Shown here piece by piece: positions 18,890 through 49,789 of a stretch of 64,000 bases of DNA; the stretch's first letter is position 1, and every line of letters starts with the position of its first letter. This stretch comes from an uncultured Alphaproteobacteria bacterium. Lineage in GTDB: Bacteria > Pseudomonadota > Alphaproteobacteria > RF32 > CAG-239. The position numbers and the translations under genes are program-made. The stretch spans positions 250,804 to 314,803 of the forward strand of contig CASFQO010000002.1 in NCBI GenBank assembly GCA_949297145.1. The letters run 5' to 3'. The notes beneath the pieces are model-generated. The model was given only the letters and a program-made list of their open reading frames with translations, was not told where the DNA came from and did not search any database.

Positions 18890-18890
18890 A

Positions 18891-19253: not shown

Positions 19254-19260
19254 TTCCTCT

Positions 19261-20377: not shown

Positions 20378-20380
20378 AAT

Positions 20381-20455: not shown

Positions 20456-20474
20456 AATGATCGGAACAAAAGCG

Positions 20475-20503: not shown

Positions 20504-20602
20504 CACTTTCTTTTTATTTTTTTCACATTTTTGCGCATAAATCAAATAAGCATAATAATATCAATAAGTTAGTCACAAGAAATTCTTACTTAACCTCAAC
20601 AG

Positions 20603-22117: not shown

Positions 22118-22201
22118 AAAAAAACTCCGTCAAAAGAAAAAAACTAAGGCATTATAGAACTGCCGATATATAAATGCAAGTATTTACTTACACATACCCT
22201 C

Positions 22202-27283: not shown

Positions 27284-27311
27284 ATCAAATCCTACCTTAA
27301 AACAAAAACCA

Positions 27312-28973: not shown

Positions 28974-28989
28974 CTTATCTCTCCTAAAC

Positions 28990-33136: not shown

Positions 33137-33199
33137 TTTTGCATATCTCCCAAATAAACAGCGCCCGAAAAACGGATACGCATCTCAAAACATCAACAA

Positions 33200-33796
33200 C
33201 TAACAACCCCACACTTGCCGAACCAAAACCCAACTGTTATCCGGCACCAATTCTGCATCTTTGGCAATTTCATTATTCAGTTCGGCCTGCTGAATAAGAG
33301 TTAAAAATTCATTATCGAGCGCCTGCTTTAAGTTAAGCGAATGTTTAATGCGCATCGCAAGTTCGGCAGCAACTTTTGCCGCCACTGCTTCCCGAAAGAG
33401 CGGCGGAAACGGCACATCGTCATCAATAACCCGCACATATTCAACTTCAATTCCCTTATCAAGCAACGTGATAATACAATTATCGGCCAGCTCATACCCT
33501 TGTAGCGCATAAGGCCTTGGCTCGGTCAAATCTTTAATCCCCGCACCAAAAACTTGAAGCAACAGCAAACAATCGTTCGGCAGTTGATACATAAACTTAT
33601 CGCCATATTTTTCTTCTCTTCGGGCCAAACGCTTGGTTGCAACGGCAAATCGCCAAGGATAAGACGACAACAACAGATTTTTCACATCTTCATAAATCAG
33701 CTCATACGATTTGCCGAAAGCAGCATCGTTAAGCGACGAAACCGGCGGTTCGCCCAGTTTGAGCAGCGCGCGGTTAATAATTTCAACTTTAGACAT
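33200..33796 (-). CDS. tail tubular protein A / head-tail adaptor-like protein, 198 aa
   Basis: Start at ATG 33796 with a GGAGG RBS. The N-terminal pattern IINRALLKLGEPPVSSLNDAAFG...YPWRFA resembles podovirus adaptor/tubular-A proteins as I remember them. The position fits. Confidence 0.45.
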   Translation of the reverse strand: MSKVEIINRALLKLGEPPVSSLNDAAFGKSYELIYEDVKNLLLSSYPWRFAVATKRLARREEKYGDKFMYQLPNDCLLLLQVFGAGIKDLTEPRPYALQGYELADNCIITLLDKGIEVEYVRVIDDDVPFPPLFREAVAAKVAAELAMRIKHSLNLKQALDNEFLTLIQQAELNNEIAKDAELVPDNSWVLVRQVWGC

Positions 33797-33908
33797 ATAA
33801 CCTCCAAGAAAGCATAAAATAAAGAGGACGAGCAACTGCCCGCCCTCCGGACTATAGACTTTTTCTTAATAATTTGAGACAAAATAATATGCGGATGCCA
33901 TGCAAAAA

Positions 33909-34283
33909 TTAGCGTGCCAAATAACCTAAGGTCACGCGAATATTGCCTGAATTAGAAGTACTTGAAGCAATCGCCGCCGTCACAAAATCTTTAACATCGG
34001 CAGGCAATGTGGCTGTTGCCATCAATTCCCCGTCAACAAAAGATTTTGTCGCTTCAATAGACATGGTGAGCAATTCGGCAAAAGCGCCCGTTTCAGTATC
34101 CCCATGCTTAACCGTGATGGTAATCGTTCCGTTAACGGCAACATCACCAACCGCAAACGCATTAACACACAAAGCCCCTTGTGTAGAACCTGCAGCCACC
34201 ACATTTCCCTCGGCAATAGAGGCCTGGTTAAGCGCCCCTTTTGCCAAATCCTCGTCATAAACTTTCAAAATATTATTTAACAT
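33909..34283 (-). CDS. small virion protein next to the capsid gene (possible decoration/cement protein), 124 aa
   Basis: ATG at 34283 with a GGGAGA RBS. Beta-rich, G/A/V/T-rich sequence. Function inferred from position. Confidence 0.4.
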   Translation of the reverse strand: MLNNILKVYDEDLAKGALNQASIAEGNVVAAGSTQGALCVNAFAVGDVAVNGTITITVKHGDTETGAFAELLTMSIEATKSFVDGELMATATLPADVKDFVTAAIASSTSNSGNIRVTLGYLAR

Positions 34284-34307
34284 CAAAAAAATCTCCCAAA
34301 AAAGAGG

Positions 34308-35207
34308 TTACGCCAATTCAACAGCCTTTTCAGAACCGTTTTCAAAGTTATAAGAAGTGATAAAGCGAATACCGTTCCAAGCGGCAAAACTACGGTTAAC
34401 ATCCATATCGCCGGTCATGGTTTGCAACACATTGCCTTTGTACTTATTAAGCATAGAAAGTACTTTCGGATGGCAAAAGATATAAGTAGATCCCGGCGTT
34501 GCCTTTGCATCCACCAACATATTGTCAATTTGTTCTGCTGTCGGAATATTATCGGCAGAAATATTAACAATCGCGGAAACCGCATCAGGGTTTGCAAGCT
34601 GCATACCGATATAGCCTTTAATGCGCACGCCATAACCAAGTAAGCCGTTAGCGTTTTTATAGAGTTGACCACCGTTAATCGGCGTTGAATCCAAAAGGCC
34701 GAAACGATTGATATTTTTAGCGGAATAAAGTCCTGTCACTTCACCCGGAATAAAACGAACCGCAACCATAGAGTAGCATTTATTATCCGCTCCCGCAGAA
34801 ACGGCTTTACCGTTTTCAACCGCATACGGGATAAAGTTATCATAAATAATTTTCTTTTCAGCAGTTTCACCGGCGTGCTTCAAAAGGATAGGAACTTTCT
34901 TAGCAAAATATTCGGAAACACCGATAACGGCAGCCTTATCTTCCGGCACGAAGATTTCCCCGCCCAAGATAGACAAGTCAATTTTTTTCAAATTAGAATC
35001 AACTTCCATTTCAGGCAGCGGTTGGTTAATATCAATAAAGCCCGCGCCGGAAATTTTTGCCACTTCTTCATAAGCGTTCCAAAGCCCGTGAGAAGAAGCC
35101 TCAAAACGCATATTATCCAAAATCGGAGAATCATTAGTTAAAAAATCAACATAATGCTCTTGCTTTTTAGACAAAGCAACCGCAATTTCTTTTAATGTAC
35201 CAGACAT
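34308..35207 (-). CDS. major capsid protein (putative)
   Basis: A 299-aa ORF directly after the scaffold-like gene. The codon usage looks highly expressed, and size and position are typical. Confidence 0.6.
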   Translation of the reverse strand: MSGTLKEIAVALSKKQEHYVDFLTNDSPILDNMRFEASSHGLWNAYEEVAKISGAGFIDINQPLPEMEVDSNLKKIDLSILGGEIFVPEDKAAVIGVSEYFAKKVPILLKHAGETAEKKIIYDNFIPYAVENGKAVSAGADNKCYSMVAVRFIPGEVTGLYSAKNINRFGLLDSTPINGGQLYKNANGLLGYGVRIKGYIGMQLANPDAVSAIVNISADNIPTAEQIDNMLVDAKATPGSTYIFCHPKVLSMLNKYKGNVLQTMTGDMDVNRSFAAWNGIRFITSYNFENGSEKAVELA

Positions 35208-35234
35208 TTAAAAAATCCTTTCAACAAACAAAAA

Positions 35235-35960
35235 TTAGTAATCATTAAACATTTCTCTGAAATATTCAACCGCATCCCAATCATCGCCTTTACGGCGTCT
35301 GCCGAAGCTAATCGGATTATCTTCCGAAATCGCCTCACCCAAACGACAAAAGACCTCCATCATACGCTTGGTACCGATTGCCTTTTCAATTTCAGCAACA
35401 GTATTTTCATCATCACAAAACATTCTGACGCCACGCTTCATCAATTCCCAATTACGTTGCGCGCGTGTCCCCCAAGTGCGTTTCATTTCTTCCATTTCGC
35501 GTAAAGAATTTTCCGCCCAAGAGGTTTCGTTTTTTTCATTCAGTTCATCACGATGTTTCACATACCAATCATAGATAGCCTGAGCAGATTGCGGCAGAAT
35601 ATGATTTTCAAGACAAACTTGTTTAAAAGCTTCGCCGTCTTCTTTATCTTCATCGGCAAAGACCACATCAAAACAAGCGCAGTCTTGCGGCATTCCCAAA
35701 CGGGAATAAAGTTTGTCCAAAGCTTTTTTATCGCCGTCCTTCGGCAAAGAAATTTTAGAAGAGAAAGCTCTTTCCAGTTCACGATAAGATTTGAGCAAAT
35801 CGGCAGGAGTTTTAAAACCCTTCTTGTCAATATAATCCAAATCTTCCGCGGACATTTCTCCCCAACCGGATTGTGCACGCAAAAAGTCTTTATCAAATTC
35901 AGACTTTAAGAAGTTATCGGAGGTAGTCTGCCCCTCCGGCTTTTTAGAATTCATCATCAT
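35235..35960 (-). CDS. scaffolding protein (putative), 241 aa
   Basis: Acidic, helical protein encoded between the portal and capsid genes. Confidence 0.5.
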   Translation of the reverse strand: MMMNSKKPEGQTTSDNFLKSEFDKDFLRAQSGWGEMSAEDLDYIDKKGFKTPADLLKSYRELERAFSSKISLPKDGDKKALDKLYSRLGMPQDCACFDVVFADEDKEDGEAFKQVCLENHILPQSAQAIYDWYVKHRDELNEKNETSWAENSLREMEEMKRTWGTRAQRNWELMKRGVRMFCDDENTVAEIEKAIGTKRMMEVFCRLGEAISEDNPISFGRRRKGDDWDAVEYFREMFNDY

Positions 35961-35985
35961 AAAATCCCCACAAAAAAGTTAGCAT

Positions 35986-36018
35986 CAAAAAAGGCAGCCT
36001 CAAAAACGAGCACTGCCT
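35986..36018 (-). terminator. second terminator-like hairpin upstream of the scaffold gene
   Basis: On the minus strand: AGGCAG...CUGCCU stem followed by U6, 25 nt before the scaffold ATG. Confidence 0.45.
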
Positions 36019-36053
36019 AAAAAAATCGTCAGATACGGAGCGCAAAAACGCCC

Positions 36054-36081
36054 ACAAAAAAAGGACGTCAACCACGTCCCC
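36054..36081 (-). terminator. promoter-proximal intrinsic terminator
   Basis: On the minus strand: GGGGACGU / ACGUCCUU 8-bp stem (2 G.U, which are mismatches on the plus strand) followed by a U-run. It starts about 22 nt downstream of the predicted start site. Confidence 0.65.
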
Positions 36082-36109
36082 AAACAAACACTATTTCCAT
36101 TATGCAGTC

Positions 36110-36138
36110 ATCATAACCGACCCCCGACAGGATGTCAA
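36110..36138 (-). promoter_or_regulatory. internal phage-block promoter (copy 2 of the conserved promoter core)
   Basis: On the minus strand: TTGACA, 17 nt spacer, TATGAT. The core AAACCTATTGACATCCTGTCGGGGG is nearly identical to 41529-41557. Confidence 0.6.
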
Positions 36139-36175
36139 TAGGTTTGGAAACGTTTTTGAAAATATTTTTTTTACC

Positions 36176-36517
36176 TTAAACATCTAAGTCACGTTTCACG
36201 TCATCGCCATCGCGTTGCAATTTGGTAAACAAAGCAAACACTTCCGTTTCGGAAAGTGCCAGATATTTAACCAACAAATCAAACATCCGCCTTTTGCCTA
36301 AAAGGAAAGCCGCCGCATTCGGATCAAACCGATTTTGCGCATCATAAAAATAAGGCACCCCGCCGGCACCGAGTTCACCACGAGCCCCCGCTTCGTCTCG
36401 CAAAAATTCAATCACAATTTCCGCTTCGGGCTTGAGTTTACCGTTTGGCGTTAAAAAGAGTTTATGAAACGCTTTCACCAGTTCATGTTCACGCTTAATT
36501 TTCTTAAAAAACATCAC
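36176..36517 (-). CDS. phage hypothetical protein, 113 aa
   Basis: ORF between the portal and scaffold genes. No motif recognised. Confidence 0.55.
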   Translation of the reverse strand: MMFFKKIKREHELVKAFHKLFLTPNGKLKPEAEIVIEFLRDEAGARGELGAGGVPYFYDAQNRFDPNAAAFLLGKRRMFDLLVKYLALSETEVFALFTKLQRDGDDVKRDLDV

Positions 36518-36526
36518 TTTTCTCCT

Positions 36527-38230
36527 TTATGCCGAAGTCTTGTTAAGCAAAGCCGAAAGAGAAGCGTTTTGCGCTCCTGCTTGCGCACCGTTTTGTTGCT
36601 GTTGCAGAAGTGCTTGTTGTTGAGCCTGCTGTTGCATTAAGAGTTCCTCAACTTCATCAGCGGTACGCACCACGTCCGGACCAACACCGTAATAATCGGC
36701 AATTTTGCGGAGTGCCGCTTCGGTATCAAACACATTTAAGATATTCGGGTTAGCCTGTGCCAAAGACGTAGCCGCCTCAATCGTTTTATAAAGCCCGACA
36801 ATCGCACCCGATTGCTGCATATGCACAGCCGGCCCTTCAAACTGAATAGCGATAGAGCCGTCATACATCAACTCATCCGGAACGTCGTCTAAAACACCGT
36901 AAGAAGCCAAAATATCCAATTCACGCTCAATATTACCGGCAAGCCATTCTGCGGAAATACGTTCACACATCGGCGCCAACAACATAGATTTTTCCATCTC
37001 GCGTTTTTCCACTTCGGTAGCAGTCATCTGCTTTGTTTGGGTGAGTGATTGGAACAAAGGCACCAAGAATGCTCTTTCAATCGCCGCCCGCACTTCGCGT
37101 TGCATTTCAACCGTAATCGAGAGATTATTACCATATTGCATAGAAACCGCCGCCGGCTTGCCCTGATTATCCAAACCGCCGCGAATAACCGCCCCCGCCG
37201 AACCGAGCTTATTGGTATCAATCAACCCCATATTGGTAAGGATGGGCGGATTAGCTTGGAGCTGACCGGTACGCAGGATAGTTTTGCCCATTTCATTGGC
37301 GGTTAATAAGTCATAAAACGCCTGCAGCGCCGGACTATCGCCGTAAGAACTTCCGGCAATACCCAAAAATCTCGGTGCCATATACGGACAAGTACGATAC
37401 CCGCCGACATGAATAATACGTTTAGCCGCCATGTCTATATGCACACTGGCATATTTCATGCCGTTAAAATCAGCAGCCTCAAGCGCATAGTCATCACGTT
37501 CAAACACAGCGTGTAAAAACTTAAACATACGTTCAGGCGTATTTTCCGCCGCTTGCAAAATATCGCCCCGCAATTCATCACCAAATTTTTTAGCGGCTTC
37601 TCCGGCGGTTAATTCATATTCACGAAAGACCGCAGCGATTTTTCCGCTGTCATCACGTTTGATATAAGCTTCCTTAACCGGAATAGTGCGATAAACAATC
37701 CCCTGCCCAACGTTATCTTCAACCATCCATAACGCATGTCCGTAAATACCGAGTTGATTAAACAACAAATCACTTTCGGAAGCGAAATTGGAATAAGCCG
37801 AATAGCGCACCCGAAAGAGTAAGTCAGTTGCTTTATCCAAAAACTTTTTAACTTTGGCATTGTCATCTAAATTCGGATCAACCGGTTTAAGTCTGTGCCA
37901 TTGTGATGTCGTCGGCACAATCACCGATTTCATGCTGGAGCAAAAACAAGCCAAAGCGTTCCGCCCCGTGGTGTCAAACACATTTTGGCGCACTCTCCCG
38001 CGGTTATCGGTCGTAAAGAGTTCCGATTCAACCGAACACATTTCCGCCGCCTTGTCCCACATCGGCTCCCATTTAGCTCTTTCGGCTTTCATCGCATCCA
38101 AACGTTTCAAAATATTTTCCGCGTTAAACGCCGGTTTTTTGCGCACCAACCGCGGTGCAAAAGATTGCCCATCTTTAGCAAAAATATTCTCCGGCTGAAA
38201 TTCCGAAGAACGATCATCCAAATGTTCCAT
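36527..38230 (-). CDS. portal (head-tail connector) protein, 567 aa
   Basis: Start at ATG 38230 with a GGGAGG RBS. Size and position after the terminase fit a portal, and the Q-rich C-terminal tail is typical of podovirus connectors. Confidence 0.65.
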   Translation of the reverse strand: MEHLDDRSSEFQPENIFAKDGQSFAPRLVRKKPAFNAENILKRLDAMKAERAKWEPMWDKAAEMCSVESELFTTDNRGRVRQNVFDTTGRNALACFCSSMKSVIVPTTSQWHRLKPVDPNLDDNAKVKKFLDKATDLLFRVRYSAYSNFASESDLLFNQLGIYGHALWMVEDNVGQGIVYRTIPVKEAYIKRDDSGKIAAVFREYELTAGEAAKKFGDELRGDILQAAENTPERMFKFLHAVFERDDYALEAADFNGMKYASVHIDMAAKRIIHVGGYRTCPYMAPRFLGIAGSSYGDSPALQAFYDLLTANEMGKTILRTGQLQANPPILTNMGLIDTNKLGSAGAVIRGGLDNQGKPAAVSMQYGNNLSITVEMQREVRAAIERAFLVPLFQSLTQTKQMTATEVEKREMEKSMLLAPMCERISAEWLAGNIERELDILASYGVLDDVPDELMYDGSIAIQFEGPAVHMQQSGAIVGLYKTIEAATSLAQANPNILNVFDTEAALRKIADYYGVGPDVVRTADEVEELLMQQQAQQQALLQQQQNGAQAGAQNASLSALLNKTSA

Positions 38231-38337
38231 ACGAACCTCCCAAAATAAAGAAACGCGGAAAAGGAAGTTCCACGTTTCAGCCACAAAAAAACCGGCTTGA
38301 GAAGCAAACCGGCTCATTAAAAAGAAAGAATTAAAAC

Positions 38338-38652
38338 CTAGCCCACCAACACTTTACCGATAAGCATCACGCCGCACCAGGCCATATAAAGCCAAACAAA
38401 CATCAGCGCAGATTTAATAAAATGTCGTTTATCCTCATTAACCAAACGCACATAGAGCGGTTTATGCAAAGAAAACGCCGCAATAAAAGCGATAGTAAAC
38501 AACCCAATCAGCAACGCTTTTTGCGAGGATATATTAAGACCGAGATTTGAAGCGAGCGCCCAAACCGTCCACATCGGCAACACCGCCACCCCTATGAGAA
38601 AACATAAGATTGCTTTCCAATACATTTTGATCTTCATCATCTTCCGCCTCAT
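38338..38652 (-). CDS. small membrane protein, 104 aa
   Basis: Three hydrophobic helices. The start overlaps the upstream stop. Confidence 0.5.
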   Translation of the reverse strand: MRRKMMKIKMYWKAILCFLIGVAVLPMWTVWALASNLGLNISSQKALLIGLFTIAFIAAFSLHKPLYVRLVNEDKRHFIKSALMFVWLYMAWCGVMLIGKVLVG

Positions 38653-38972
38653 TACACCAACAAACTAAACATAACCATAAACCCGCACCACAAGAGGTAA
38701 TAAAGCACTCCCACGCCGACAAAACAAGCATATTTCGTCATAGGCTTTTGCAGTTTCATGCTTTGGGTTAATTTGGCATAAACGGTCGTCAACGAACCCC
38801 CGCATCCGCCAATGGCGATAAACAGCACATAAACTCCAACAGCACCAAACATCCAAAAATCCGCACCGTCATCAATAAACAGCCCAAACAACAGTGCCGG
38901 CACGATTGAAGCCATATAGTCAACCACCGTCATCCTTTTGGCTTTAGAGGAATTATTCAAATTTGCGTTCAT
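38652..38972 (-). CDS. small membrane protein, 106 aa
   Basis: Start at ATG 38972 with a GGAGAA RBS. Three to four hydrophobic helices. Confidence 0.5.
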   Translation of the reverse strand: MNANLNNSSKAKRMTVVDYMASIVPALLFGLFIDDGADFWMFGAVGVYVLFIAIGGCGGSLTTVYAKLTQSMKLQKPMTKYACFVGVGVLYYLLWCGFMVMFSLLV

Positions 38973-39058
38973 AGATTTCTCCACATAAAACAAACCATAA
39001 AACACAAATTTTATATCATACCCCACTCATAAATGCAACGTTTTTTTATCGCGCTTAT

Positions 39059-39253
39059 TTACGCACCGAGCGTTGTTTTACCGCCGCCGGAACCATAAGA
39101 ATTATCGTGAGATAAAAGTTGTGATACGGCGCCCATTTTCTTTTTGCGCTTATTTTCCAATTCATGCACTTCAGCAGAATTATCCACAACTTCCAACTCC
39201 ACTTCTTGCGGTTGCACCTGAACAACTTTCGGTTTAGAAAAAACAGAACTCAT
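39059..39253 (-). CDS. phage hypothetical protein, 64 aa
   Basis: Short ORF fitting tightly between terL and the membrane-protein genes. Confidence 0.4.
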   Translation of the reverse strand: MSSVFSKPKVVQVQPQEVELEVVDNSAEVHELENKRKKKMGAVSQLLSHDNSYGSGGGKTTLGA

Positions 39254-39278
39254 CTCTGTACTCCTTTATAAAATTAAG

Positions 39279-40598
39279 TTAAAGATAAACGGAATCATCC
39301 ACAAAATCCCCACCTGAGGGATGAGGAATTTTCAAAAGATATTCCGCATTTTGAATAGCAAACGTGAGCGCCAACGCATCAGCAACATCCGTCGAACGCC
39401 CCAATCTTTTTTTAATCTCGGCTTTAGGTTCCAACTGCAACCGCCCAAGCGCATCAAACATTTTAAGCGGCGCCGTCAAATCTTCCACCAAGCCGGAAAA
39501 TTCGGGCAAAGAAACCGGCAAAGGCGACGTCAGCCATTGAGCCACCCTCGCCCACATTTCCGCCCGACGGTTAACAAAGCGTTCAGCGTTATCAGCCCTC
39601 TCGCCAAAATTAACCGCGACAACATATTCAGCCAAGCCGTTTGCCGCCAACACGTCATACACACCGGCACCAAGCCCACCCACATCAATGCACACCCGCG
39701 CCGGATTATCTTCGGCAATAACAGCACCGATAAGATGCGCCACCTGCACCACATCAAGCTTTTGAAACGTTTTGAATTTTAAGACTTGTCTTCCTCGCCG
39801 ATAGCAAATAGCAGTTTTGTCATCGCCGAAACGCGCCACATCAACCCCGATAATGAGCGGCGCCGTATCGTCATTGATTTTAATATCGTTTTCAAGCGCC
39901 CGATACACTTCTTCGCGCCCGATTAAATGATTATCCGCCGTCAAGCGTGGTTCCCCCTCCCAAACATGCAGATATTCGCCATAATTTTCGTTTTTCATTT
40001 TAAGCGCCAATCGCTTCATGTTATCCGGACAATACGGATTGTCATAATAGTTGACCTTACGAACAATCGTGTCATTGTCGGGATGAAGAGCAAGAGCCTT
40101 CCAAACAGGATCGTTTTCCTCTTCACGGTTGAGAGAAAGCCAAATTTCCGCATTGGGCTTACGAATGGTCGGGTCTAAGATTTGCCATGCGCGTTCTGAT
40201 ATTTTCTGCGCTTCTTCACACCAACAAATATCCACCCCTTCAAGCGATTTAATATTTTGCGCATTGTGTTCCAAAATTCCCTTAAAGATAAATTTAGATT
40301 TATTTTTGAGGTTGACGATTTTATCTTCATAGAGGCGGTATTCGTTGAGCTGATAAAAAGCAATTCTGTCGGCAATCAGCTTATAAACGGAATCTTTAAT
40401 AGAGTTTTGCACCTCACGCACGCAGGCAATTAAGAGCTTGCGACTGGTCGCAAGCGTCAGGAGCGCATCTGCAAACGCATAAGACTTACCGCCGGCTCTT
40501 CCGCCATAAAACATCTTATAGCGTGCTTTAACCGTCAAGAGCTCCCGAAACGCCCGCGGCAGTTGCACTTTCATTTCTTTTTGTATCACCTTAGCCAT
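39279..40598 (-). CDS. terminase large subunit (PBSX/XtmB-like)
   Basis: Walker A-like FYGGRAGGKSYA and a nuclease-domain pattern IIGVDVARFGDDKTAI. GAGGAT RBS. Confidence 0.85.
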   Translation of the reverse strand: MAKVIQKEMKVQLPRAFRELLTVKARYKMFYGGRAGGKSYAFADALLTLATSRKLLIACVREVQNSIKDSVYKLIADRIAFYQLNEYRLYEDKIVNLKNKSKFIFKGILEHNAQNIKSLEGVDICWCEEAQKISERAWQILDPTIRKPNAEIWLSLNREEENDPVWKALALHPDNDTIVRKVNYYDNPYCPDNMKRLALKMKNENYGEYLHVWEGEPRLTADNHLIGREEVYRALENDIKINDDTAPLIIGVDVARFGDDKTAICYRRGRQVLKFKTFQKLDVVQVAHLIGAVIAEDNPARVCIDVGGLGAGVYDVLAANGLAEYVVAVNFGERADNAERFVNRRAEMWARVAQWLTSPLPVSLPEFSGLVEDLTAPLKMFDALGRLQLEPKAEIKKRLGRSTDVADALALTFAIQNAEYLLKIPHPSGGDFVDDSVYL

Positions 40599-40622
40599 TA
40601 TCCTCTGCCCATCATCAAATAC

Positions 40623-41024
40623 TCACACAAACTTCACCACAATTTCTTTCAAATTCTGCCCATCGTCATTATCGTCATCGCCATTTTGCAACGTCGTCCA
40701 GATAGGTTCCGGACAAGCCTTTTGCGCCAACCACTTTTCGGTTTCAATCAAAAGTTTGGCTGTTGAGTTATCAATTTCACCTTTTTTAAGTTCCGCCACA
40801 ATTTTCCGAATATTATCGGTACAGCTATCGGCATAATCAGCCAGCGCCAACTTATACCCTTGCGAAAAAGCGGGATTAGCGGCCGTTGCCTCATAAAATT
40901 GCTTCGTCCCGATACCGTTTTTTTGACAAGCGGCAAAAAGAGAAGCGCCTTTGCGCAACGCCTCAAACACTGCCGTCAAAATTTCTTCATCTGTTTTATT
41001 AATACTTTTTTTCCGAACACCCAT
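40623..41024 (-). CDS. terminase small subunit (putative), 133 aa
   Basis: HTH-like N-terminal region. It lies immediately upstream of terL and is the first gene of the block. Confidence 0.5.
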   Translation of the reverse strand: MGVRKKSINKTDEEILTAVFEALRKGASLFAACQKNGIGTKQFYEATAANPAFSQGYKLALADYADSCTDNIRKIVAELKKGEIDNSTAKLLIETEKWLAQKACPEPIWTTLQNGDDDNDDGQNLKEIVVKFV

Positions 41025-41397
41025 AATAACTCATACCCATATATACGGAACACCCATTGCGCCATAAGAAGCACACGGCGCTTATGTCCGCTCATAAGCG
41101 CCCCGCCCATACATTTTTGCCTAAAGCAAAAATCCCATAATTGACTATAGAAAGAGTGCCTATCCGTTTTTTTAGGAGAATTGCCATTTTCTTATAGAAG
41201 TAGATAAGGTAATAAATTCCTGGCATAAACCAAATCAAAGTTTATTTTTAATTGAATAAAATCTTCATCTTCTCCGTCTCAAAAAAACAGAGCAACCGAA
41301 GAGACATAAAAAGCCGTCATTTTTTTAACACAAAAAAGCCACCGATAAAAACCTGAAAGCTTTTCACGCTCAAAACGAGCCTTTTTTGATTTCGCAC

Positions 41398-41428
41398 TAA
41401 AAAACGCCGCCGATAAAAACCGACAGCG
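41398..41428 (-). terminator. leader terminator downstream of the block promoter
   Basis: On the minus strand: CGCUGUCGG / UCGGCGGCG 9-bp stem. Its 3 G.U pairs would be C.A mismatches on the plus strand. It is followed by U6. A degenerate second copy lies at 41332-41362. Confidence 0.6.
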
Positions 41429-41521
41429 CTCTTTAATGACATTCAATGAAAATTTAAACTTTAAAAATAATTTATATCAAGATTCAACTGTTTTGATATA
41501 CACTCTTCCACGATACCCAAA

Positions 41522-41550
41522 CTTATAACACCCCCCGACAGAGATGTCAA
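41522..41550 (-). promoter_or_regulatory. promoter of the phage-like block (copy 1 of the conserved promoter core)
   Basis: On the minus strand: TTGACA (41550-41545), 17 nt spacer, TATAAG (41527-41522). There is no minus-strand gene upstream. The leader to the terS ATG is about 490 nt. Confidence 0.6.
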
Positions 41551-41689
41551 TAGTTTCAGATTCAAAATGATAAAAAAATAAATAAAGCAAAAACAGTAAG
41601 TTAAACAAACTGTGCATATAATTTTTGTTTAATTGACTAAAAACCGCCCACAAATTAGGGTATAAAATAAGGGAAAGAAGAGAAAAAAG

Positions 41690-43519
41690 ATGCGCAAATC
41701 CGATATAAAAGATACAACTAAACCACAAAAGACCGCAAAAAAGGCTGTTATTAGCCCCAAATCGGTCCAAAAAAGCAAAGAACAAGCACAGCAAACCGCT
41801 GAAATCGCAACGCTAAATCAAACTTCATTGCAAGAAAGAGTTCTGAATTTTGACCTTGTAAACACTTTGCAACAATGGTGTCAAAAAGCCGACAAGCCGT
41901 TCTGGACCGCTTTTTTTACCGCTTTTATAGTTTTAAACCTAATCTTTTTATATCATGGCGCGCAATTTTTATTCGGCGACCATGATTGGCGCTATCTGAA
42001 AGAAGGCATCACACTCAGCGCCGGCTTGTTTGAAGCAAGATTTACTCAATTTATCCCAATAAATATCTTAAGTCGTGGCGAGATATATCCGATAATTAAC
42101 AATCTACTGGGCTTTGCCGGCTTTTCGTTAGGAACAGCCCTACTCGCCCGCTATTGGAATTTACCGCATCATAAAAAACAATATGCGCTATTCGCACTGT
42201 TTTGCGCCATAACTCCATACATTTTGTCATTTATGTATTTTGCCTTTTTGATTATGTCGGTTTTGGGGTGGAACGCTTTTATTTTAGGCGCGTTGGTGAT
42301 AAGTGAGAAGGAACAGAAATTTTCGCTCTTTCGCACCCTAGCCTCCGTCTTTTTAATCATAATGGCATTAGGCGGTTATCCGCCGGTTATCAACTTAATC
42401 GCGGTTGTATTGAGTATCAAATTATTGCAAAGCAGCCTAAATCTTCCCCAAGAAACAAAGTTCACAGCTTTCATCTCCGCCCAATTTAACCGCTATAAAT
42501 GGACGTTTGCCAATTTGCTCATCGGGCTTTTGGGGTATAAACTTTGCCTTTGGGGTTTAGAGCAAACCGGTGCCGTAAATACCGCATATTACAATCTGCA
42601 AACCACCCCGATTGCCGAATGGGGCAATAAGTTCATATTGGTGAGCAAAGATGTCTTCCTCCAGTTTATGGTAACCTTGCCGTTTATGCCCGCCACATAT
42701 AAAGCGCTGACTTTAGCACTGGTCGTTTTAGGATTATGCCTAATAATCAAGAAGTTAACAAATAAAGCCGCACCAATCTCTCAAAAATTCATCATTACCG
42801 CCCTAACCATTATCTGCCTCTATGCGCCGTTGGTCACTTTGTTTATCTCCACCTCGCTGGCTGAAACAGAATTTTCCCCGCGGATAGACTTTTTCGGCTT
42901 GATGTACTTATACGCGGGCTTTTTGGCAATCATACTAAGCGCGCCTAATAAAGAAAAAGTTTTTAAGAACATCTGTACCGCCCTTGCCGTAGCGATTATC
43001 TTTGTTTCCGCCAATAACCTATTTGAAGCCCAAAAGGTGTGGAAATTGGGCTTTGATGCAGAAATGAAATTATATCGCCGCGCCGCTGCACGTTTCATGG
43101 CCTCGCCAGCTTTTTCGCTCAATCAAAAATACATCATGATACAAGGGGGTATCGCTTCGTTCCGTCCGCGGTTTTATCATACCCCCTATGACATCAAGAG
43201 CGATGATTTATTGAGCATCTCGTATGTTCCGGGGCTAAATTCCGGGGTGATGTGGAACTATTATGCCCCAAAAGACTTTGCCGACACCACCTCCTATGTC
43301 TATACGCTAAAACCGGATATGCCAACGGCCGCCCAAATCAGGCAATCCGCCGGTTGGCCGCACCAAAACAGCACCGCGATTTCCGTATTACCGTGGCAAC
43401 AATTTTTGCTAGAAAAAGCCCCAGCCAACATCCCCGTCACCACCTCGCACCAAAATTGGATAATGCTGATAATAGATGACGGCGGCCGCGAAAATCTTAG
43501 CCATAGCTATGGATTATAA
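41690..43519 (+). CDS. polytopic inner-membrane protein, 609 aa (function unknown)
   Basis: Basic N-terminus followed by at least 10 hydrophobic helices and a soluble C-terminal region. Confidence 0.7.
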   Translation: MRKSDIKDTTKPQKTAKKAVISPKSVQKSKEQAQQTAEIATLNQTSLQERVLNFDLVNTLQQWCQKADKPFWTAFFTAFIVLNLIFLYHGAQFLFGDHDWRYLKEGITLSAGLFEARFTQFIPINILSRGEIYPIINNLLGFAGFSLGTALLARYWNLPHHKKQYALFALFCAITPYILSFMYFAFLIMSVLGWNAFILGALVISEKEQKFSLFRTLASVFLIIMALGGYPPVINLIAVVLSIKLLQSSLNLPQETKFTAFISAQFNRYKWTFANLLIGLLGYKLCLWGLEQTGAVNTAYYNLQTTPIAEWGNKFILVSKDVFLQFMVTLPFMPATYKALTLALVVLGLCLIIKKLTNKAAPISQKFIITALTIICLYAPLVTLFISTSLAETEFSPRIDFFGLMYLYAGFLAIILSAPNKEKVFKNICTALAVAIIFVSANNLFEAQKVWKLGFDAEMKLYRRAAARFMASPAFSLNQKYIMIQGGIASFRPRFYHTPYDIKSDDLLSISYVPGLNSGVMWNYYAPKDFADTTSYVYTLKPDMPTAAQIRQSAGWPHQNSTAISVLPWQQFLLEKAPANIPVTTSHQNWIMLIIDDGGRENLSHSYGL

Positions 43520-43610
43520 GCCAAATATCCCATAAAGAGATTGACCAAGCTAAAAATTTGTGCTATTCTGATAGAAAATGACGTTGAGCTATTATTATCG
43601 GGAGGTCGAT

Positions 43611-45860
43611 ATGTCTCTAAAAGATAAAATCAAACAAGCAGCCATGGGAGCAACCATAGGTGCGGCCAGCCTATCTCCAACAATGGCGCAACAAACACCT
43701 CAACAAGATATAACCTCCGATAAATACACCAAAACCATCACGGTGAGGAATGACTCAGTCCGAATGGTCGGTAACACGGCGGCATATTACAGTCAAAACG
43801 ACAACCAAATCTACACAATCAAAGGAGATATGCAGTGGAGCGACTTCGGTTTTGAAAACACACCGCACGTCACAGATGAAACTTTACAAATTATACACGA
43901 AGCCCAACACCAAATCAATCGCAACAAAAAGCATCTGGGTTCGGAAAATATGAGCTTAAATGAAAATTATCAACGAGATGTTCATGATGAAATCACAGCT
44001 TTAATCGCTGAAAAGTTAGAAATTCGCCGTCAATATCGCGCGGCCCAAACCAAAGCTGAAAAAGATGCTGTTATAGAAAAATATATGCAAGAGGACGCAC
44101 ACCGCCAATATATCAGCGCCATTAAAGAAGGTCGCATAAATCCCAACAGCAACAAGAGCACCGATTTTGATAAAGAAATGTCTTTTATCAAGAATGACGC
44201 GACAGAGTATCGTGCCGATCCCAACGATGACGGTTACAAAAAACAATGGACCAGCTTAAGCATGGCCTATTTAAACCGTGTCGGAACCAATGCACAATCA
44301 AACCCGAAAGCTCTAAAACAAGAAATCCATGATATCTACCAAATCGGCGGTATCAATTTCACCAAATACGGCAAACATGACGTCTTTGTTTTAGAAAATC
44401 AATCAATAATCGCCGCGGATAATCTATTGCAACAAGGAGCCGAGCCGCAAAAACTGATTGCTTTTATGAACGAAGGCGAAGGTCCGTTTAAGTTAGCAGA
44501 AAGTTTGGATGTCAGCGGCTTATCTAAAGAACAAGCGGAAAAAGTTCTCCAAACGGCCATTGTCACTCAAGAATTACAAGAAAACATCACCGAAGACATT
44601 TGTTTTGGGCAAAAAGGCTCTTATAATTTTGATTTTATATCAGAAGATTTAAGAGAAAAGACCGCCGTTTATCTCGATATGAAGTCAGACATTTGGGAAA
44701 AGAACGGGACTTTGAATCCAAACGGAGATGAAGCCAAATTCAATCAATTGATGCAACAAGCCAAAACCCTAAACATAGACACCGAGCAATGGTTTGAAAG
44801 CATCAAGAATGACCTATCGCATTACACGCTGGCGCAAACCGAAGAAGGGCGAAGAAAATTAATGGAAGCCGTCAAACAAAATCAGGGCCGCACCGTAAAC
44901 TTAGATAATTTCGTCACCAATATGGATGAGTTCACACTCCCCTTAGACGGCACCAGCAAAGAGGCCGTCTTAAAAGAAAAAGCCGACAAAGCTAAAGCAG
45001 ATGCCGATTTCTGGAAAGAATATTATAAAAAGAACCCACCCAAGGCCAAACGCTTATCCGATCCGTATGAAATAAATATTATGGATTTGGAATCAAATAT
45101 ATTAAAAGACGAGTTAAACGCCCGCAAAAAAGCCGAAGAAGAAAAGAAGATAGAACCTTTATATCAATCACCGCGTAACACAACCTATAAACTTTCAGAC
45201 GGCGGCATAGATATAGCCATTCCGAACAACAGTTATGAAAACGCCGAACTAAAACAAATCAAAAACGACAAAGGCGAAGTTTTGGATTTAACTTTGCTCG
45301 ATGGAAAGGTCCATGGTTTATATTCCATCATGGATGAAAACGGCAATATCAAGAGTTTCAAACTCTATGACAAAGGCAAAGAGATAGACTTAAACAAGCA
45401 TCAGTTAGAAATTAAACAAGAAGAACAAGACGGCGCCAAACATGAATATATGTTATTAGACGGCAAGAAATTCGGAACGGAAATCATCACCGGCGCGGAC
45501 GGCACGCAAAAAGCCGCCTTTTGGGATAGTTTTGGCCTGATTAACGGCAGCGAGCAAGCCACCATAGGAACTTCAACCGTCCATGCGGATGATTATACCC
45601 CCTCGCCGCTTCGTCCGGAATATCAAGAAGATTTGGCAAGCCGTGCCGAGCTCAAAGCAAGCCTCAAAAGTCAAACCGGAGAATTACCGACACCGACGGC
45701 TGAAAATACTTCCAAACAACTACGCTTGGATATGCACATAAAAGCGCACGAAAACAATCGTCCCGACGAGGTTAATGGCAAAAAGGCTATCAAAGAAAAC
45801 AAAAGACAAGACACCAACACGCTGTATGTACCGATATGGCAGCAGCAAAACACACACTAG
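43611..45860 (+). CDS. hypothetical secreted protein, 749 aa
   Basis: ATG at 43611 is preceded by GGGAGG. Signal-like AAMGATIGAASLSPTMAQQ. No motif recognised. Confidence 0.7.
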   Translation: MSLKDKIKQAAMGATIGAASLSPTMAQQTPQQDITSDKYTKTITVRNDSVRMVGNTAAYYSQNDNQIYTIKGDMQWSDFGFENTPHVTDETLQIIHEAQHQINRNKKHLGSENMSLNENYQRDVHDEITALIAEKLEIRRQYRAAQTKAEKDAVIEKYMQEDAHRQYISAIKEGRINPNSNKSTDFDKEMSFIKNDATEYRADPNDDGYKKQWTSLSMAYLNRVGTNAQSNPKALKQEIHDIYQIGGINFTKYGKHDVFVLENQSIIAADNLLQQGAEPQKLIAFMNEGEGPFKLAESLDVSGLSKEQAEKVLQTAIVTQELQENITEDICFGQKGSYNFDFISEDLREKTAVYLDMKSDIWEKNGTLNPNGDEAKFNQLMQQAKTLNIDTEQWFESIKNDLSHYTLAQTEEGRRKLMEAVKQNQGRTVNLDNFVTNMDEFTLPLDGTSKEAVLKEKADKAKADADFWKEYYKKNPPKAKRLSDPYEINIMDLESNILKDELNARKKAEEEKKIEPLYQSPRNTTYKLSDGGIDIAIPNNSYENAELKQIKNDKGEVLDLTLLDGKVHGLYSIMDENGNIKSFKLYDKGKEIDLNKHQLEIKQEEQDGAKHEYMLLDGKKFGTEIITGADGTQKAAFWDSFGLINGSEQATIGTSTVHADDYTPSPLRPEYQEDLASRAELKASLKSQTGELPTPTAENTSKQLRLDMHIKAHENNRPDEVNGKKAIKENKRQDTNTLYVPIWQQQNTH

Positions 45861-45897
45861 AACAATAATCAGCCGAAAAACAGGGCTAAGACAATAA

Positions 45898-45930
45898 CAA
45901 AAAAGAGCGCCGATAATTAGCGCCCTTTTA
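45898..45930. terminator. bidirectional terminator between convergent genes
   Basis: AGAGCGC / GCGCCCT stem with T-runs on both strands. Confidence 0.6.
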
Positions 45931-45947
45931 AGTTTAAGAACCATGCA

Positions 45948-46595
45948 TTATTTACGTTTAAAGCGGTCTTTACGCCCGGTATCTTGCGCCTTGCTAAACT
46001 CAAACAGACTTTCATCCAAAGTTCCGTCCGCCACAGTATTGTAGAGTGACAGAGAAACCTCCATAGCTTGCGGCGTAACGACTTTCCATTGTTTAAGCTG
46101 CATCGGGTTATTGGCAAAAACAAGCGTAAACGGCCCCAAATCACCGGCATTAGCATATTGCAACCCGATTTTGGTCACGCCCGGATCTTCATAAAAATCA
46201 GTAACTTTCAGCTCTTTGCCGTCAATTTTAACCGTATTGGCCAAAACAGCCGCCGCCGGAATATCTTCATAATCAATATTGGTAATCTGGTCCAACTCTT
46301 TGTCATAATAAACGATATAGTCGCCGTTTCCGACAATCAAGATATTAGACGGTTCGTTATATTCCATGCGGATTTTATTAGGTTTTTCAATATAAATCCG
46401 CCCCTCAACTTTTTCCCCGTTGCTGGCAATTTGCACAAAATCGGCACGCATGGTTTTAAGCGAGTTCAGATAATTTTCCACTTTTTTAATATCATCGGCA
46501 GAAGGAGCTGTACCGGCAGCCAAAACCGGATAAGCCGCCCCCAAGAAGCAACCGCCGCAAAGCATAACGGCAAAAACTTTTGCAAATTTCATCAA
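45948..46595 (-). CDS. lolA: outer-membrane lipoprotein carrier protein LolA
   Basis: Signal peptide plus the LolA-family pattern LKTMRADFVQ...GRIYIEKPNKIRMEY..P....IV.NGD..Y.YD. Confidence 0.85.
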   Translation of the reverse strand: MMKFAKVFAVMLCGGCFLGAAYPVLAAGTAPSADDIKKVENYLNSLKTMRADFVQIASNGEKVEGRIYIEKPNKIRMEYNEPSNILIVGNGDYIVYYDKELDQITNIDYEDIPAAAVLANTVKIDGKELKVTDFYEDPGVTKIGLQYANAGDLGPFTLVFANNPMQLKQWKVVTPQAMEVSLSLYNTVADGTLDESLFEFSKAQDTGRKDRFKRK

Positions 46596-46741
46596 TTCAT
46601 CCTTAAAAAAACTAAACTAATGTATAAGATAAGGGCAAAGTCTGATTTTTTCAAGTTAAATTCGCGGTTATCTTCAACAATTTCCCCAAAGAAATCCACA
46701 ACAAGAAGCCTTAAAAAAGATAAAAAAAGCTTTCAGATATA

Positions 46742-46770
46742 TTGACTCACCCCCGAAAATGTGCTACACT
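46742..46770 (+). promoter_or_regulatory. sigma70-type promoter candidate
   Basis: TTGACT (46742-46747), 17 nt spacer, TACACT (46765-46770). Confidence 0.45.
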
Positions 46771-46809
46771 CCGACGAATAAACAATCTCTTATTAAGGTA
46801 TCAAATTAA

Positions 46810-47937
46810 ATGGCAAACAAAGCACTGACATCACCGGAAATTCTGTTACTGGATAAATTAGAAGAAGTAGACAAATCTCTGCCGGTAACTCTGTGGGAAC
46901 AGATGCGCTCCGATGTCACGATGGCCGATGCGGTAGAAGAAGCGGATATACACACACTTCCGGCCGTCCGTCAACGTAAAAAGATGTTTTTGCGAGACTT
47001 TGTTGAAAGAGCCATCAATCACCCGATACGCGTTTATCCTGATGTTCCGGAAGAAACTTTGCGCCAATTATATCGGCTGCACCTGTTTTGCTGCCAACGC
47101 GCCATCCATAACATCGAGGTTAAAAGAAACCCGTTTCAGCTTGGTTTTGTCGCTTTAAGAGAGATGAAAACGGCATTGATGGGGATGTTGATATCCTATC
47201 GCTTGATAGATCCCTCTTGTCCGTATAGTTGGAATCATCAATTTTTTGAAATGAACATCATAACGGATAAAAACGCTGACGGCGACACGGTCATTAAGTT
47301 TAACCGCATTCCGCCGCAAATTATCCCCTTGGCCGTAACCGAAGAGTTAGTGACAGATTGGCTCATATACCGCGCTTATGATAATAACGGCATCCGCACC
47401 TTGATGGATTATAAAAATAACCTCTTAACCCTGCCCGATTATCAACGCGGCGGCGCACCGGAAAATGAGTTTTCGCGCTTTGAACGTAAGATGCAAGAAC
47501 AGCGTAACCGTTTTGAACGCCATAAAAATCAAGAATTGGACCTAGAGTTTCGCAAAACTTTGGTAAGAAACGTTGCCCAACAAACCGCCAATGAGATGTT
47601 AAATTCAGGGCTAAGCGCTTCAGAAATCTTAGAACAAGCCTTCAAGGCAGATTTAAGCAGTTTGGTTGTAGATAAACCTAAACCACGTTATAACGAGATG
47701 AATTATCACGCAGTTCCCAGCCATCAATCACATGAGCACCATCCCAAAATACAAGAGCAAAATAAACCTTGGCTCGATTCGGTGGCAGAAGAAGAGTACT
47801 TAAACGCACCGCAAGCGCAAAAGCTGCAAGCCCTCCCCGCGCCGGAATCAACCCCTCAAAAAACCAAGAAGCCCCTAAAGCATGAAGATACATCGATGAT
47901 AGATGAAATGATTGCAAAGTTTTTGGATGAAGATTAG
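46810..47937 (+). CDS. hypothetical protein, 375 aa
   Basis: Long ORF with a promoter candidate. No motif recognised. Confidence 0.65.
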   Translation: MANKALTSPEILLLDKLEEVDKSLPVTLWEQMRSDVTMADAVEEADIHTLPAVRQRKKMFLRDFVERAINHPIRVYPDVPEETLRQLYRLHLFCCQRAIHNIEVKRNPFQLGFVALREMKTALMGMLISYRLIDPSCPYSWNHQFFEMNIITDKNADGDTVIKFNRIPPQIIPLAVTEELVTDWLIYRAYDNNGIRTLMDYKNNLLTLPDYQRGGAPENEFSRFERKMQEQRNRFERHKNQELDLEFRKTLVRNVAQQTANEMLNSGLSASEILEQAFKADLSSLVVDKPKPRYNEMNYHAVPSHQSHEHHPKIQEQNKPWLDSVAEEEYLNAPQAQKLQALPAPESTPQKTKKPLKHEDTSMIDEMIAKFLDED

Positions 47938-48108
47938 TTTGTCGTTTTGCTTGCCATGAGCAGGATGAAATATCTTCGCACCCCTCAACACTGAAGTTAG
48001 AATAAAAAAAAGCGGATAAAAAAATTCCCCGCTCTCATCCGGCGCACAAAATTTCGCTCGCGCAAAAAACGTCTGCACCAAAAGAGAATACGGAGATGTG
48101 GGAGAATT

Positions 48109-48182
48109 TGGAGCAGGTGACGGGAATCGAACCCGCATTAAAAGCTTGGGAAGCTCTCATTCTACCATTGAATTACACCTGC
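48109..48182 (-). tRNA. tRNA-Gly (anticodon CCC), CCA encoded
   Basis: Manual cloverleaf. Acceptor GCAGGTG/CACCTGC, anticodon stem AGAGC/GCTTT, loop TTCCCAA, T-arm GCGGG-TTCGATT-CCCGT. Length 74 nt. Confidence 0.92.
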
Positions 48183-48346
48183 GTCCAAGAGAGTTATCAC
48201 AAACAACGGAGAATAAATAAAAGATAAAAACAAAATTTTCAACGTTTTTTGCACCAATGTGCATAAAATTGTGCATAACTAACGCCAAAAAAATACAAAA
48301 AAAGCAAAAGATTAGCCCTCAAAAGCCAAGCAATTTCATAAAAAAA

Positions 48347-49789
48347 TTACCTTTGTTTACGCTTAAACAAATTCATCACTTGTCCTTGTAAAGTATCGCC
48401 AAGGTAGAACTTACCCTTCCAATCATCTTCAAAATCTAATCCGCTCTTCATAAGTTGCTTTCTGTTTTTAAACATCAACCGCGCCTCATTTCCAAACTTT
48501 GCGCTATGAAGAAACAAAGTTTCGCAAGGGGTGAAATCAATTTTAGCATTGATATTTTTAGCCCCCCACATACTAACCTCTGCCCCTTTCCGAAAACGAA
48601 AAGTTTTGACGGTAGCCAAATCGCAGGAATCAAGCACCACCTTGCGACATTCGGAAAAATCCACTTGAGGAGACAAATTCTTCGTCCATTGAAAATTAAC
48701 CTCTGCCCCCGGCATAAAATGTAAATTCTGCTGATTGCCCAAGTCGCAATAAGACATCTCCACCACCCGATAACGAGAAACATCAAGATTGGGAGGCAAA
48801 TTTCTGGAACTAATAAAATGTACCTCTCCCTCATCTTTAAGCCGAACATCGGATACGCCGTCCAAATCAGAAAGCGAAAATTCAAGCCGTTGACATTTAG
48901 AATAATCCAAATTTTGCGGAATATTAAAAACTCTGCCGAAGCTAACCGCCGCGCCGTCTCTAAACAAAAAGTTTTCGGTCTGTTCCAGATTGCACTCTTC
49001 AATTCTCACTTCTCCGAAAGCAGAAAAATCCCACACACCGGATAAATTTTCCCCTTTGGTGTGCATAGCCATCGTCTCGGGATTATACTTCCAACTTTTT
49101 AAGCAAGAATCAGGTTTCGTAAGCTCAACATCATTAACCAGAATTTGGTCACACATAGAAACATCAAGATGAAAAGGCAGATGACGCACATCTTTGAGTT
49201 TAACTTTAGCTTTTTTGCGAAAAACCACCCTTTTGACACCTGCAAAATCACTACCGCTAAAATCCACCTCATCCGCGAGCGGAAATTCCATCACTTGCGG
49301 TAACTTTTCTTTATTTTGTAAATAGATTTTGGAAATATCCAAACAAATCAGCTTGTCATACAAACTCAAGTCTAAATCTCTAATTTCTTCCCCGCGAAAG
49401 CCGCGAGAAAGTTTGGGAGAAGACAGTAAAAACTCCCCCTCTCCAGGTTGAATTATTGTTTTAAATTCTGCACTATAACCACCCAACCGCGCAAAGTTTT
49501 CACCCATTTCCATAATACTGTCAGGCTGCTCACGTTGCGAAAAAGTAGAGAGAATAACCTCTTTGAATTGCGCTTGTTCGGTAACGGGCAATTCCGCAAT
49601 ACAGAGAAGCATATCTTTAATATTACGCGCATAATTGGTGGATTGCAAAACCTCAAAACACACCTCGGGCGTAATCTTTTCTTTAGGAAGACGCTGCTTT
49701 TTGTCATCACTCAAGCGCCCCTTTTTATAGGGGATTAAGATGTTTTCAACGGCAATCGCCGATTTAAAATTTTGAATATCAACAAACAT
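48347..49789 (-). CDS. 41-residue-repeat (LRR/beta-solenoid-like) protein, 480 aa
   Basis: A conserved ~110-aa N-terminal domain is shared with 51953-53900. It is followed by about 7 repeats of the pattern NLPxxLDVSxCxxVxLxxCDLxxVxxLRFxxGAxVxF. Confidence 0.75.
   Translation of the reverse strand: MFVDIQNFKSAIAVENILIPYKKGRLSDDKKQRLPKEKITPEVCFEVLQSTNYARNIKDMLLCIAELPVTEQAQFKEVILSTFSQREQPDSIMEMGENFARLGGYSAEFKTIIQPGEGEFLLSSPKLSRGFRGEEIRDLDLSLYDKLICLDISKIYLQNKEKLPQVMEFPLADEVDFSGSDFAGVKRVVFRKKAKVKLKDVRHLPFHLDVSMCDQILVNDVELTKPDSCLKSWKYNPETMAMHTKGENLSGVWDFSAFGEVRIEECNLEQTENFLFRDGAAVSFGRVFNIPQNLDYSKCQRLEFSLSDLDGVSDVRLKDEGEVHFISSRNLPPNLDVSRYRVVEMSYCDLGNQQNLHFMPGAEVNFQWTKNLSPQVDFSECRKVVLDSCDLATVKTFRFRKGAEVSMWGAKNINAKIDFTPCETLFLHSAKFGNEARLMFKNRKQLMKSGLDFEDDWKGKFYLGDTLQGQVMNLFKRKQR

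Follow-up and report, generated by a model that had tools for sequence, protein, structure and literature searches.

A promoter running into terminators before terS, repeated at four loci, as a probable antitermination gate for podovirus-like particle genes in an uncultured alphaproteobacterium

The window, i.e., the whole 64,000-nucleotide stretch of DNA analysed here, corresponds to C2:250804-314803 of a 1.4-Mb metagenome-assembled genome (87% complete), whose relatives are uncultured gut and rumen Alphaproteobacteria. From 41024 to 20603 on the minus strand, it harbors a T7/BPP-1-like short-tailed virion gene set. TerS and TerL are of Sf6 type, and the set further encodes three small proteins, a portal with a Bbp19-like protein, the scaffold and capsid proteins, tail tubular proteins A and B, internal virion proteins, and an LPD protein of 1693 aa. 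This virion block (41024-20603) yielded no genes for replication, integration, or lysis, and the nearest phage portals are at most 35% identical to the portal of the block. The genes nearest to the region of interest are as follows.

40623-41024, minus strand: terS (PF20901 at 2e-11; phrog_1482), the first gene putatively gated by the P1 promoter
40598-39279, minus strand: terL (PF04466)
Downstream of terL and three small genes, minus strand: portal gene (PF12236), in the P1 operon, which also holds the Bbp19-like gene

The longest portal open reading frame (ATG at 38317) spans two terminator hairpins; the portal most likely starts at 38230 instead, where the ATG follows a GGGAGG Shine-Dalgarno (SD) sequence, as the family match does not set in until residue 65 of the longer frame.

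Divergent from terS lies a gene for a 609-aa protein (p609; 41690-43519, plus strand) without a family match, which by eye resembles a multi-pass membrane protein and whose pairing with terS is preserved in about 20 species. Between the two divergent promoters, the segment 41601-41640 was kept in the alignment of 18 species and is missing from the paralogous modules P2-P4 described below. Within it, TTAGTCAA (41640-41633) is the reverse complement of a TTGACT (41634-41639, plus strand) that resembles a -35 element for the 609-aa membrane-like protein gene, and AAAAATTATATGCACAGTTTGTTTAA (41626-41601) holds a small dyad, ACAA-n-TTGT. EcfG-type and CtrA-type readings of the conserved blocks were rejected by eye, the spacing differing among species. 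A small open reading frame (MTFNENL) starting at 41436 on the plus strand was likewise discarded, as it was not conserved, with a stop after five codons in one species and 1-nt indels. A search against Rfam 15 at the gathering score yielded three tRNAs in the window and nothing in the P1 region.

Upstream of terS, on its own strand, the following signals were identified.

41522-41557, minus strand: P1 promoter (GAAACTA 41557-41551; TTGACA 41550-41545; TATAAG 41527-41522)
41508-41515, minus strand: -10-like TATCGT followed by GG, beginning 6 nt after the -10 element, about +1 to +8
41399-41434, minus strand: terminator T1a (stem-loop 41429-41405, A-tract/U-tract extension, U6 at 41404-41399)
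41332-41373, minus strand: terminator T1b, a duplicated and weaker copy of T1a, then U6

An earlier sequence-only reading of this DNA had proposed a near-consensus promoter here, and TTGACA-17-TATAAG is indeed present at 41550-41522, with a 17-nt spacer that holds the element TGTCGGGGGG (41540-31) and a TG at 41530-29, which makes an extended -10. A generic promoter scan missed P1 because it accepted only T at position 6 of the -10 element; the 28-nt P1 pattern, spacer included, occurred once in the window with zero occurrences expected. Transcription is predicted to start at about 41515. In an alignment of modules (A1), TTGAC, one spacer G, and the first T of the -10 were invariant in 20/20 aligned modules, and the spacer motif TG(T/A)C(A/G)GGGG was kept among both orthologues and paralogues, as was the upstream GAAAsTA; the spacer motif is a candidate factor-binding element. 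Within the initial transcribed element, the same alignment showed no change at the A and T of NANNNT or at the GG after them, and the other NANNNT positions varied. Sigma region 2 reads exactly those two bases, A and T, in a -10 element, and TATCGT+GG is a candidate sigma70-dependent promoter-proximal pause signal.

T1a occupies +87 to +117 relative to the P1 start. Its core folds at -14.1 kcal/mol, and with the A/U extension the value reaches -22.3 kcal/mol (z = -6.85; 0/200 shuffles as good), whereas the opposite, plus strand reaches only -4.3 kcal/mol, which bears out the proposal that G.U pairs make the hairpin specific to the minus-strand RNA. A second copy of the hairpin with a T-run had also been claimed: the copy is real, T1a and T1b forming a 22-nt direct repeat of 91% identity at 68-nt spacing (family D1), but as a terminator it is much weaker (-7 to -10 kcal/mol, z = -1.8). 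T1b is confined to the closest clade of species to the window; the second terminator in sister species ranges from -7.3 to -13.0 kcal/mol, with the strongest in G022. Similarly, the leader of about 490 nt in that reading stands for the window, from about 41515 to the terS ATG at 41024, but holds for the window clade only; the roughly 300 nt between T1b and terS are, like T1b, a clade-specific addition, and what the species have in common is shorter, namely about 85 nt of leader with one terminator directly before terS. The inserted stretch 41025-41330, missing in compact species, carries a GC-rich hairpin of 10 perfect base pairs (41077-41102) that no U-run follows.

Across 18 species, P1 is conserved over the promoter and roughly the first 85 nt of the transcript, and this conservation stops exactly at the start of the hairpin. 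Beyond the closest clade, 13 species each have their own unrelated GC-rich hairpin followed by a U-run at the T1a position; as these stems are unrelated in sequence yet always present, the terminator is conserved as a structure rather than as a sequence. In the compact species G031, G027, G007, G008, and G028, the SD of terS lies 12-40 nt after the U-tract, which leaves no room for a second promoter, implying that terS is read from P1 through the terminator and, in turn, that P1 and T1a are not merely an independent small-RNA gene.

A whole-genome pattern search and a profile (nhmmer) search revealed exactly four such modules in the genome (nhmmer E 5e-22 to 2.6e-9; next match E = 1.7).

P1, window position 41550, minus strand: precedes terS, terL, and portal
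P2, 36097-36145, minus strand: TTGACA 36138-33, spacer TCCTGTCGGGGGTCGGT, TATGAT 36115-10, CATAAT+GG 36104-36097 (nhmmer E = 2.6e-9)
T2a and T2b, 35987-36081, minus strand: T2a 36081-36061 then U7; T2b 36018-35993 then U6
P3, C2:179751: precedes a protein with a T7-type fibre N-terminal domain (phrog_1640, 2e-24), and holin-like and spanin-like proteins
P4, C8:91536: precedes a GH108 endolysin (PF05838, 4e-19)

P2 precedes the scaffold, capsid, and tail genes, with T2a and T2b lying before the scaffold gene ATG at 35960; the spanin-like call behind P3 was made by eye without a family match. All four modules share the layout of GAAAsTA, TTGACA, a 17-nt spacer holding CTGTCGGGGG, a -10 element, 5-6 nt, and NANNNT (TATCGT, CATAAT, AAGAAT, or CATAAT), next GG and then rAGTGT. 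Between +25 and +180, each has a pair of intrinsic terminators, with SD and ATG behind them, and several of the first terminators are weak (-7 to -9 kcal/mol). The leaders of P2-P4 are short and unrelated to that of P1, the promoter and the pause-like element being common to all. As read from gene content, the cargo of P1-P4 would together make one particle (packaging/portal, head/tail, fibre/holin, and endolysin).

A 761-aa protein encoded at C2:177427-179712 (plus strand) ends 38 nt before the -35 of P3. Two HEPN-like Rx4H motifs, IRHLMHH and LRNDLSH, are present in it, and a HepT-like match is weak (E = 0.0045); orthologues of 744-805 aa lie directly upstream of a P3-type module in all genomes examined. 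The protein may act as a sensor or a regulator, or have no connection with the module.

The module sequence model found 1-9 copies in 35/36 genomes of the genus; G035 is a high-quality genome devoid of modules. Among the 48 modules with E <= 1e-5, NANNNT+RG was present in 47/48 and GG in 45/48, the offset being exactly 6 nt after the -10 in 41. A co-oriented terminator within 230 nt was detected in 48/48 modules and two or more in 31/48, compared with 600 control 5' regions of which 19% had at least one terminator, 2% at least two, and 81% none. The genes directly upstream of modules at 20 further loci included no recurrent small regulator, only the 744-805-aa protein before P3. In IMG/VR, a degenerate module pattern gave 31 matches, none confirmed by the profile; modules were found on one MAG-like contig only, and no free phage carrying a module with an adjacent regulator was found there.

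Terminators also occur inside the operons.

38250-38315, minus strand: two tandem terminators without a promoter (38315-38289 and 38278-38250), directly before the portal SD/ATG (38230)
33823-33848, minus strand: internal terminator of 11 pairs, 7 of them G-C, then UUAUUUUAU, then SD+ATG

Two or three terminators of different sequence were found at the same pre-portal place in distant relatives (L036 and L041), and terminator 33848-33823 separates the capsid-region genes from the tail tubular genes. Neither a promoter module nor a consensus promoter accompanies any of these pre-portal and 33848-33823 terminators. Polymerase reaching the portal gene must thus be terminator-resistant over kilobases, which amounts to processive antitermination, and the internal terminators argue against a purely local RNA switch.

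The absence of an antiterminator from the block, with its controller perhaps elsewhere, had been noted from the letters alone, and the genome search for Q, NusG/RfaH, and DUF6456 families gave no candidate elsewhere in the genome either. The Pfam Q families PF06530 and PF03589 had no match in the genome (87% complete), and PF06323 none above cut-off in the 36 genus genomes; PF02357 detected a single NusG-family locus (contig C7) and no second one; and DUF6456/GafA-like proteins (PF20057) gave 0 candidates in this genome (G000). PF20057 did match in 7/36 genus genomes, with all six loci examined situated in prophage-like early regions. At these loci (L170-L175; G003, G021, G011, G008, G015, and G034), DUF6456 proteins of 141-210 aa lie beside replication-type genes, and in G021 the gene is on the contig of the particle block, about 25 kb away. 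Three individual candidates were also discarded: the Bbp19-like 113-aa protein, which lies upstream of P2 as Q does of PR', was modelled with a pLDDT of 75.6 and gave no PDB fold match at E < 1 and thus no Q-like fold, and p609 (membrane-like) and p760 (secreted-like by eye) both had no family match. A fold-level relative of Q, such as BrrG of the gene transfer agent BaGTA, is possible in this genome.

The sequence-only reading had compared the region with the lambdoid late operon, in which the PR' promoter runs into the tR' terminators and Q permits read-through. This logic gains support from the repeat at four loci, the NANNNT+GG at lambda-like spacing, the terminators conserved in structure, the lack of room for another terS promoter in compact species, and the promoter-less internal terminators. 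We thus consider it fairly probable that 41332-41557 is the P1 head control module of a regulon for a podovirus-like particle, gated by terminators and opened by an antiterminator. What the sequences show directly is how the module is built, that it is conserved, and that no other promoter is available; the pausing, the factor, and the read-through at the modules are deductions. Against this reading weigh the lack of antiterminator matches in the genome (87% complete) and the weakness of T1b. In the proposed mechanism, the housekeeping sigma70 polymerase would initiate at about 41515 from the near-consensus promoter and by default would stop at T1a, with T1b as a back-up, releasing a leader RNA of about 119 nt. 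Expression of the genes for packaging, portal, head, tail, fibre, and lysis would begin only once a factor made the polymerase terminator-resistant; this factor would probably be recruited at the spacer element while the polymerase was held at NANNNT+GG, and the modified polymerase would also pass the promoter-less terminators within the operons.

The lambdoid PR'/tR'/Q cassettes (lambda, 82, and 21) resemble the modules in their strong sigma70 promoter with a -10-like NANNNT and G-rich bases about 6 nt after the -10, in a conserved element within the promoter spacer, in a short terminated leader RNA (cf. lambda 6S RNA), and in structural and lysis genes that lie behind terminators, further downstream terminators being bypassed there as they presumably would be here. 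However, none of three Q families was detectable here and no regulator gene lies directly upstream; the lambdoid cassette occurs once, whereas the module occurs four times at dispersed chromosomal loci, usually with two terminators per unit; and the host is an alphaproteobacterium whose element lacks replication and lysogeny genes. Closer in host are the gene transfer agents (GTAs) of Alphaproteobacteria. In BaGTA, P_bgtA-K has TTGACA-N17-TATCAT and a NANNNT 5 bp downstream that is needed for expression, and its leader terminator is read through by the Q21-like BrrG, encoded at another locus (bioRxiv 10.1101/2024.11.20.624540). The consensus promoter, the NANNNT 5-6 bp downstream, and the terminator in a long leader are common to both, and an antiterminator encoded at another locus would be a further likeness, but in BaGTA a single promoter serves a single capsid operon, the leader terminator is weak at -6 kcal/mol, BrrG is recognisable by fold only, and the podovirus-type particle genes here differ from those of BaGTA. 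In CcGTA, GafZ binds between the -35 and -10 elements and bypasses terminators (PMC11150451). The GafY/GafZ system is similar in its spacer element, its terminators inside the cluster, and its accessory loci elsewhere in the genome, but the GafZ/GafY family (DUF6456) is absent from the genome here, and the CcGTA terminator follows the first gene, with 150-bp repeats and, unlike P1, a promoter that is activator-dependent and not of consensus type.

In addition to its place before terS, the P1 leader has a match elsewhere in the genome.

41435-41457, minus strand: leader segment TTAAATTTTCATTGAATGTCATT, 23 nt, the exact reverse complement of -1 to +22 of a DUF2934 gene

This gene (71 aa; PF11154 at 2e-10; contig C11) is core to the genus (33/36 genomes), and its start is the only other match of the segment in the genome (E = 1.2e-4). 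In the terminated P1 RNA of about 119 nt, the segment lies in a 39-nt A/U-rich stretch predicted to be unpaired, between a weak 5' hairpin and the terminator. The P1 RNA thus has the features of a small RNA (sRNA), namely its own promoter, a Rho-independent terminator, and a predicted accessible seed complementary to an mRNA start region, and Hfq is present in the genome. In the P1-type leaders of most species, the core TTGAATGTCAT is retained immediately ahead of the terminator, and it recurs in the short leaders of another type of element, present in genomes without the virion block. Predicted duplexes with the DUF2934 start of the same genome range from -16 to -30 kcal/mol. When 400 background start regions were sampled, the best of them reached about -11 to -25 kcal/mol, and in most lineages the DUF2934 start was better than any of the 400. 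Changes that preserve pairing consist of A-to-G giving G.U, a 1-nt bulge, and, in G011 and G028, position -1 changed on both partners; as the leaders are orthologous, these represent few independent events. The DUF2934 start is equally conserved in genomes without the leader. Around this start (L002 1490-1525, G000:C11), an inverted repeat (ATTGAA-ATGACA-TTCAAT) places the start codon in a hairpin loop, and the first seven codons show less synonymous variation than the rest of the gene in 30 genomes. The P1 RNA resembles leader/5'UTR-derived and Hfq-type sRNAs in its single-stranded A/U-rich seed beside a Rho-independent terminator with a U-tail and in a seed matching the translation initiation region (-1 to +22), and differs from them in that a phage-type late promoter would yield it by default and that its putative target is an uncharacterised core DUF2934 gene. 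A real sRNA function of the P1 leader, as an addition to the gate rather than an alternative, seems from these matches a genuine possibility, if somewhat less than an even one.

If P1 and T1a were only a stand-alone sRNA gene repressing DUF2934 by start-codon pairing, their position before terS would be incidental. For this reading speak the perfect and genome-unique 23-nt complementarity with Hfq at hand, the predicted accessibility of a seed abutting the terminator, and the retention of complementarity in most lineages and in another element type, with the -1 changes on both partners. Nevertheless, terS of the compact species has no other promoter, P2-P4 share the promoter and pause element with P1 but not the leader, and the DUF2934 start is conserved where there is no leader to pair with; the first two points make an sRNA role better seen as an add-on to the gate, and we hold an sRNA gene alone to be quite improbable. 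Somewhat less improbable, though still unlikely, is passive attenuation, in which the tandem terminators would leak a small constant fraction for low basal expression, with control exerted on the promoter and no antiterminator involved. The empty genome searches for antiterminator families and the weakness of several first terminators fit this view, as do RNA contigs found downstream of the terminators. The latter are assembled Logan contigs of a single metatranscriptome (run X1), which carry no ends, strand, or depth profile and derive from a strain 95-98% identical. They cover 41245-41717 (both T1 terminators), parts of terL, the small genes and portal, and 35761-36171 (the P2 module), and none lies over 20460-35700 or 43314-47750. 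Over 30000-49000 and 10500-30400, coverage of the P1 operon and the P2 leader was patchy, the 15 kb of distal head/tail genes was bare, and a tRNA-Glu (20381-20455) was very deeply covered; for a rumen relative, the search yielded no run. The pattern would fit some transcription past T1, with the distal P2 operon transcribed little; the contigs downstream of T1a/T1b could reflect substantial read-through or DNA carry-over and are given little weight. Against passive attenuation, a constant leak would leave the NANNNT+GG at fixed spacing (47/48) and the conserved spacer element unexplained, and, multiplied over 4-5 terminators in a row, it would leave the portal and tail genes almost without expression.

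Antitermination might also follow another route, with an RNA-binding protein, a put-like cis RNA, or an ops/RfaH-type NusG paralogue acting at the paused complex. The initial transcribed sequence of P1, GGGTATCGTG, resembles GGTAGCGTG, the core of ops, and P1-type leaders carry conserved sequence blocks; on the other hand, the genome has a single NusG-family gene, the corresponding sequence of P2 and P4 (CATAATGG) is unlike ops, and RNAalifold found no conserved pairs upstream of the terminator, i.e., no conserved two-stem (put-type) structure, in P1-type leaders, those of P2-P4 being short and unrelated. Moreover, the internal terminators require a processive change of the polymerase, and such a route appears about as improbable as an sRNA gene alone. 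Lastly, the repeated GGTTTTTATCGGYGGC units could be read as DNA sites for the small terminase (pac/cos-type) and not as RNA signals, given a direct repeat just upstream of terS, the place where the R sites of lambda cosB likewise lie. This is highly unlikely: the repeat exists in the closest clade only, with unrelated hairpins and a U-run at the same position elsewhere, the G.U design is strand-specific at the RNA level, and an identical architecture precedes fibre and endolysin genes.

Taking the antiterminator-gated regulon further, the modules may be the switchboard of a podovirus-derived, GTA-like system with an undescribed antiterminator family (not Q, GafA/GafZ, or RfaH), the P1 leader doubling as a dual-function sRNA on DUF2934; this fuller picture is speculative, and we lean against it as a whole. 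If it were true, the off state would itself yield a terminated sRNA of about 119 nt, so that the promoter of a domesticated virus would also regulate a host core gene. Processive antitermination has only recently been shown for the two best-studied alphaproteobacterial GTAs, and the same logic would here operate in an unrelated, podovirus-type system, with a control unit that is unusually clean, repeated, and sequence-defined, yet without a recognisable antiterminator. The invariance of NANNNT+GG offers a precise mutational handle, the antiterminator is a defined target for discovery, and the 64-nt module can serve as a practical marker for regulon genes in any genome of the genus.

In other genomes, the cargo behind the modules comprises fibre and holin genes, endolysins, lysozymes, and structural genes. 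The endolysin-type cargo genes share a common N-terminal domain with the motif LLxKYGSxExIxxNA (loci L077, L079, L085, L087, L090, L092, L096, L097, L103, L104, and G000:C8:90507-91340), and a genome carries several such paralogues, each preceded by a module of its own.
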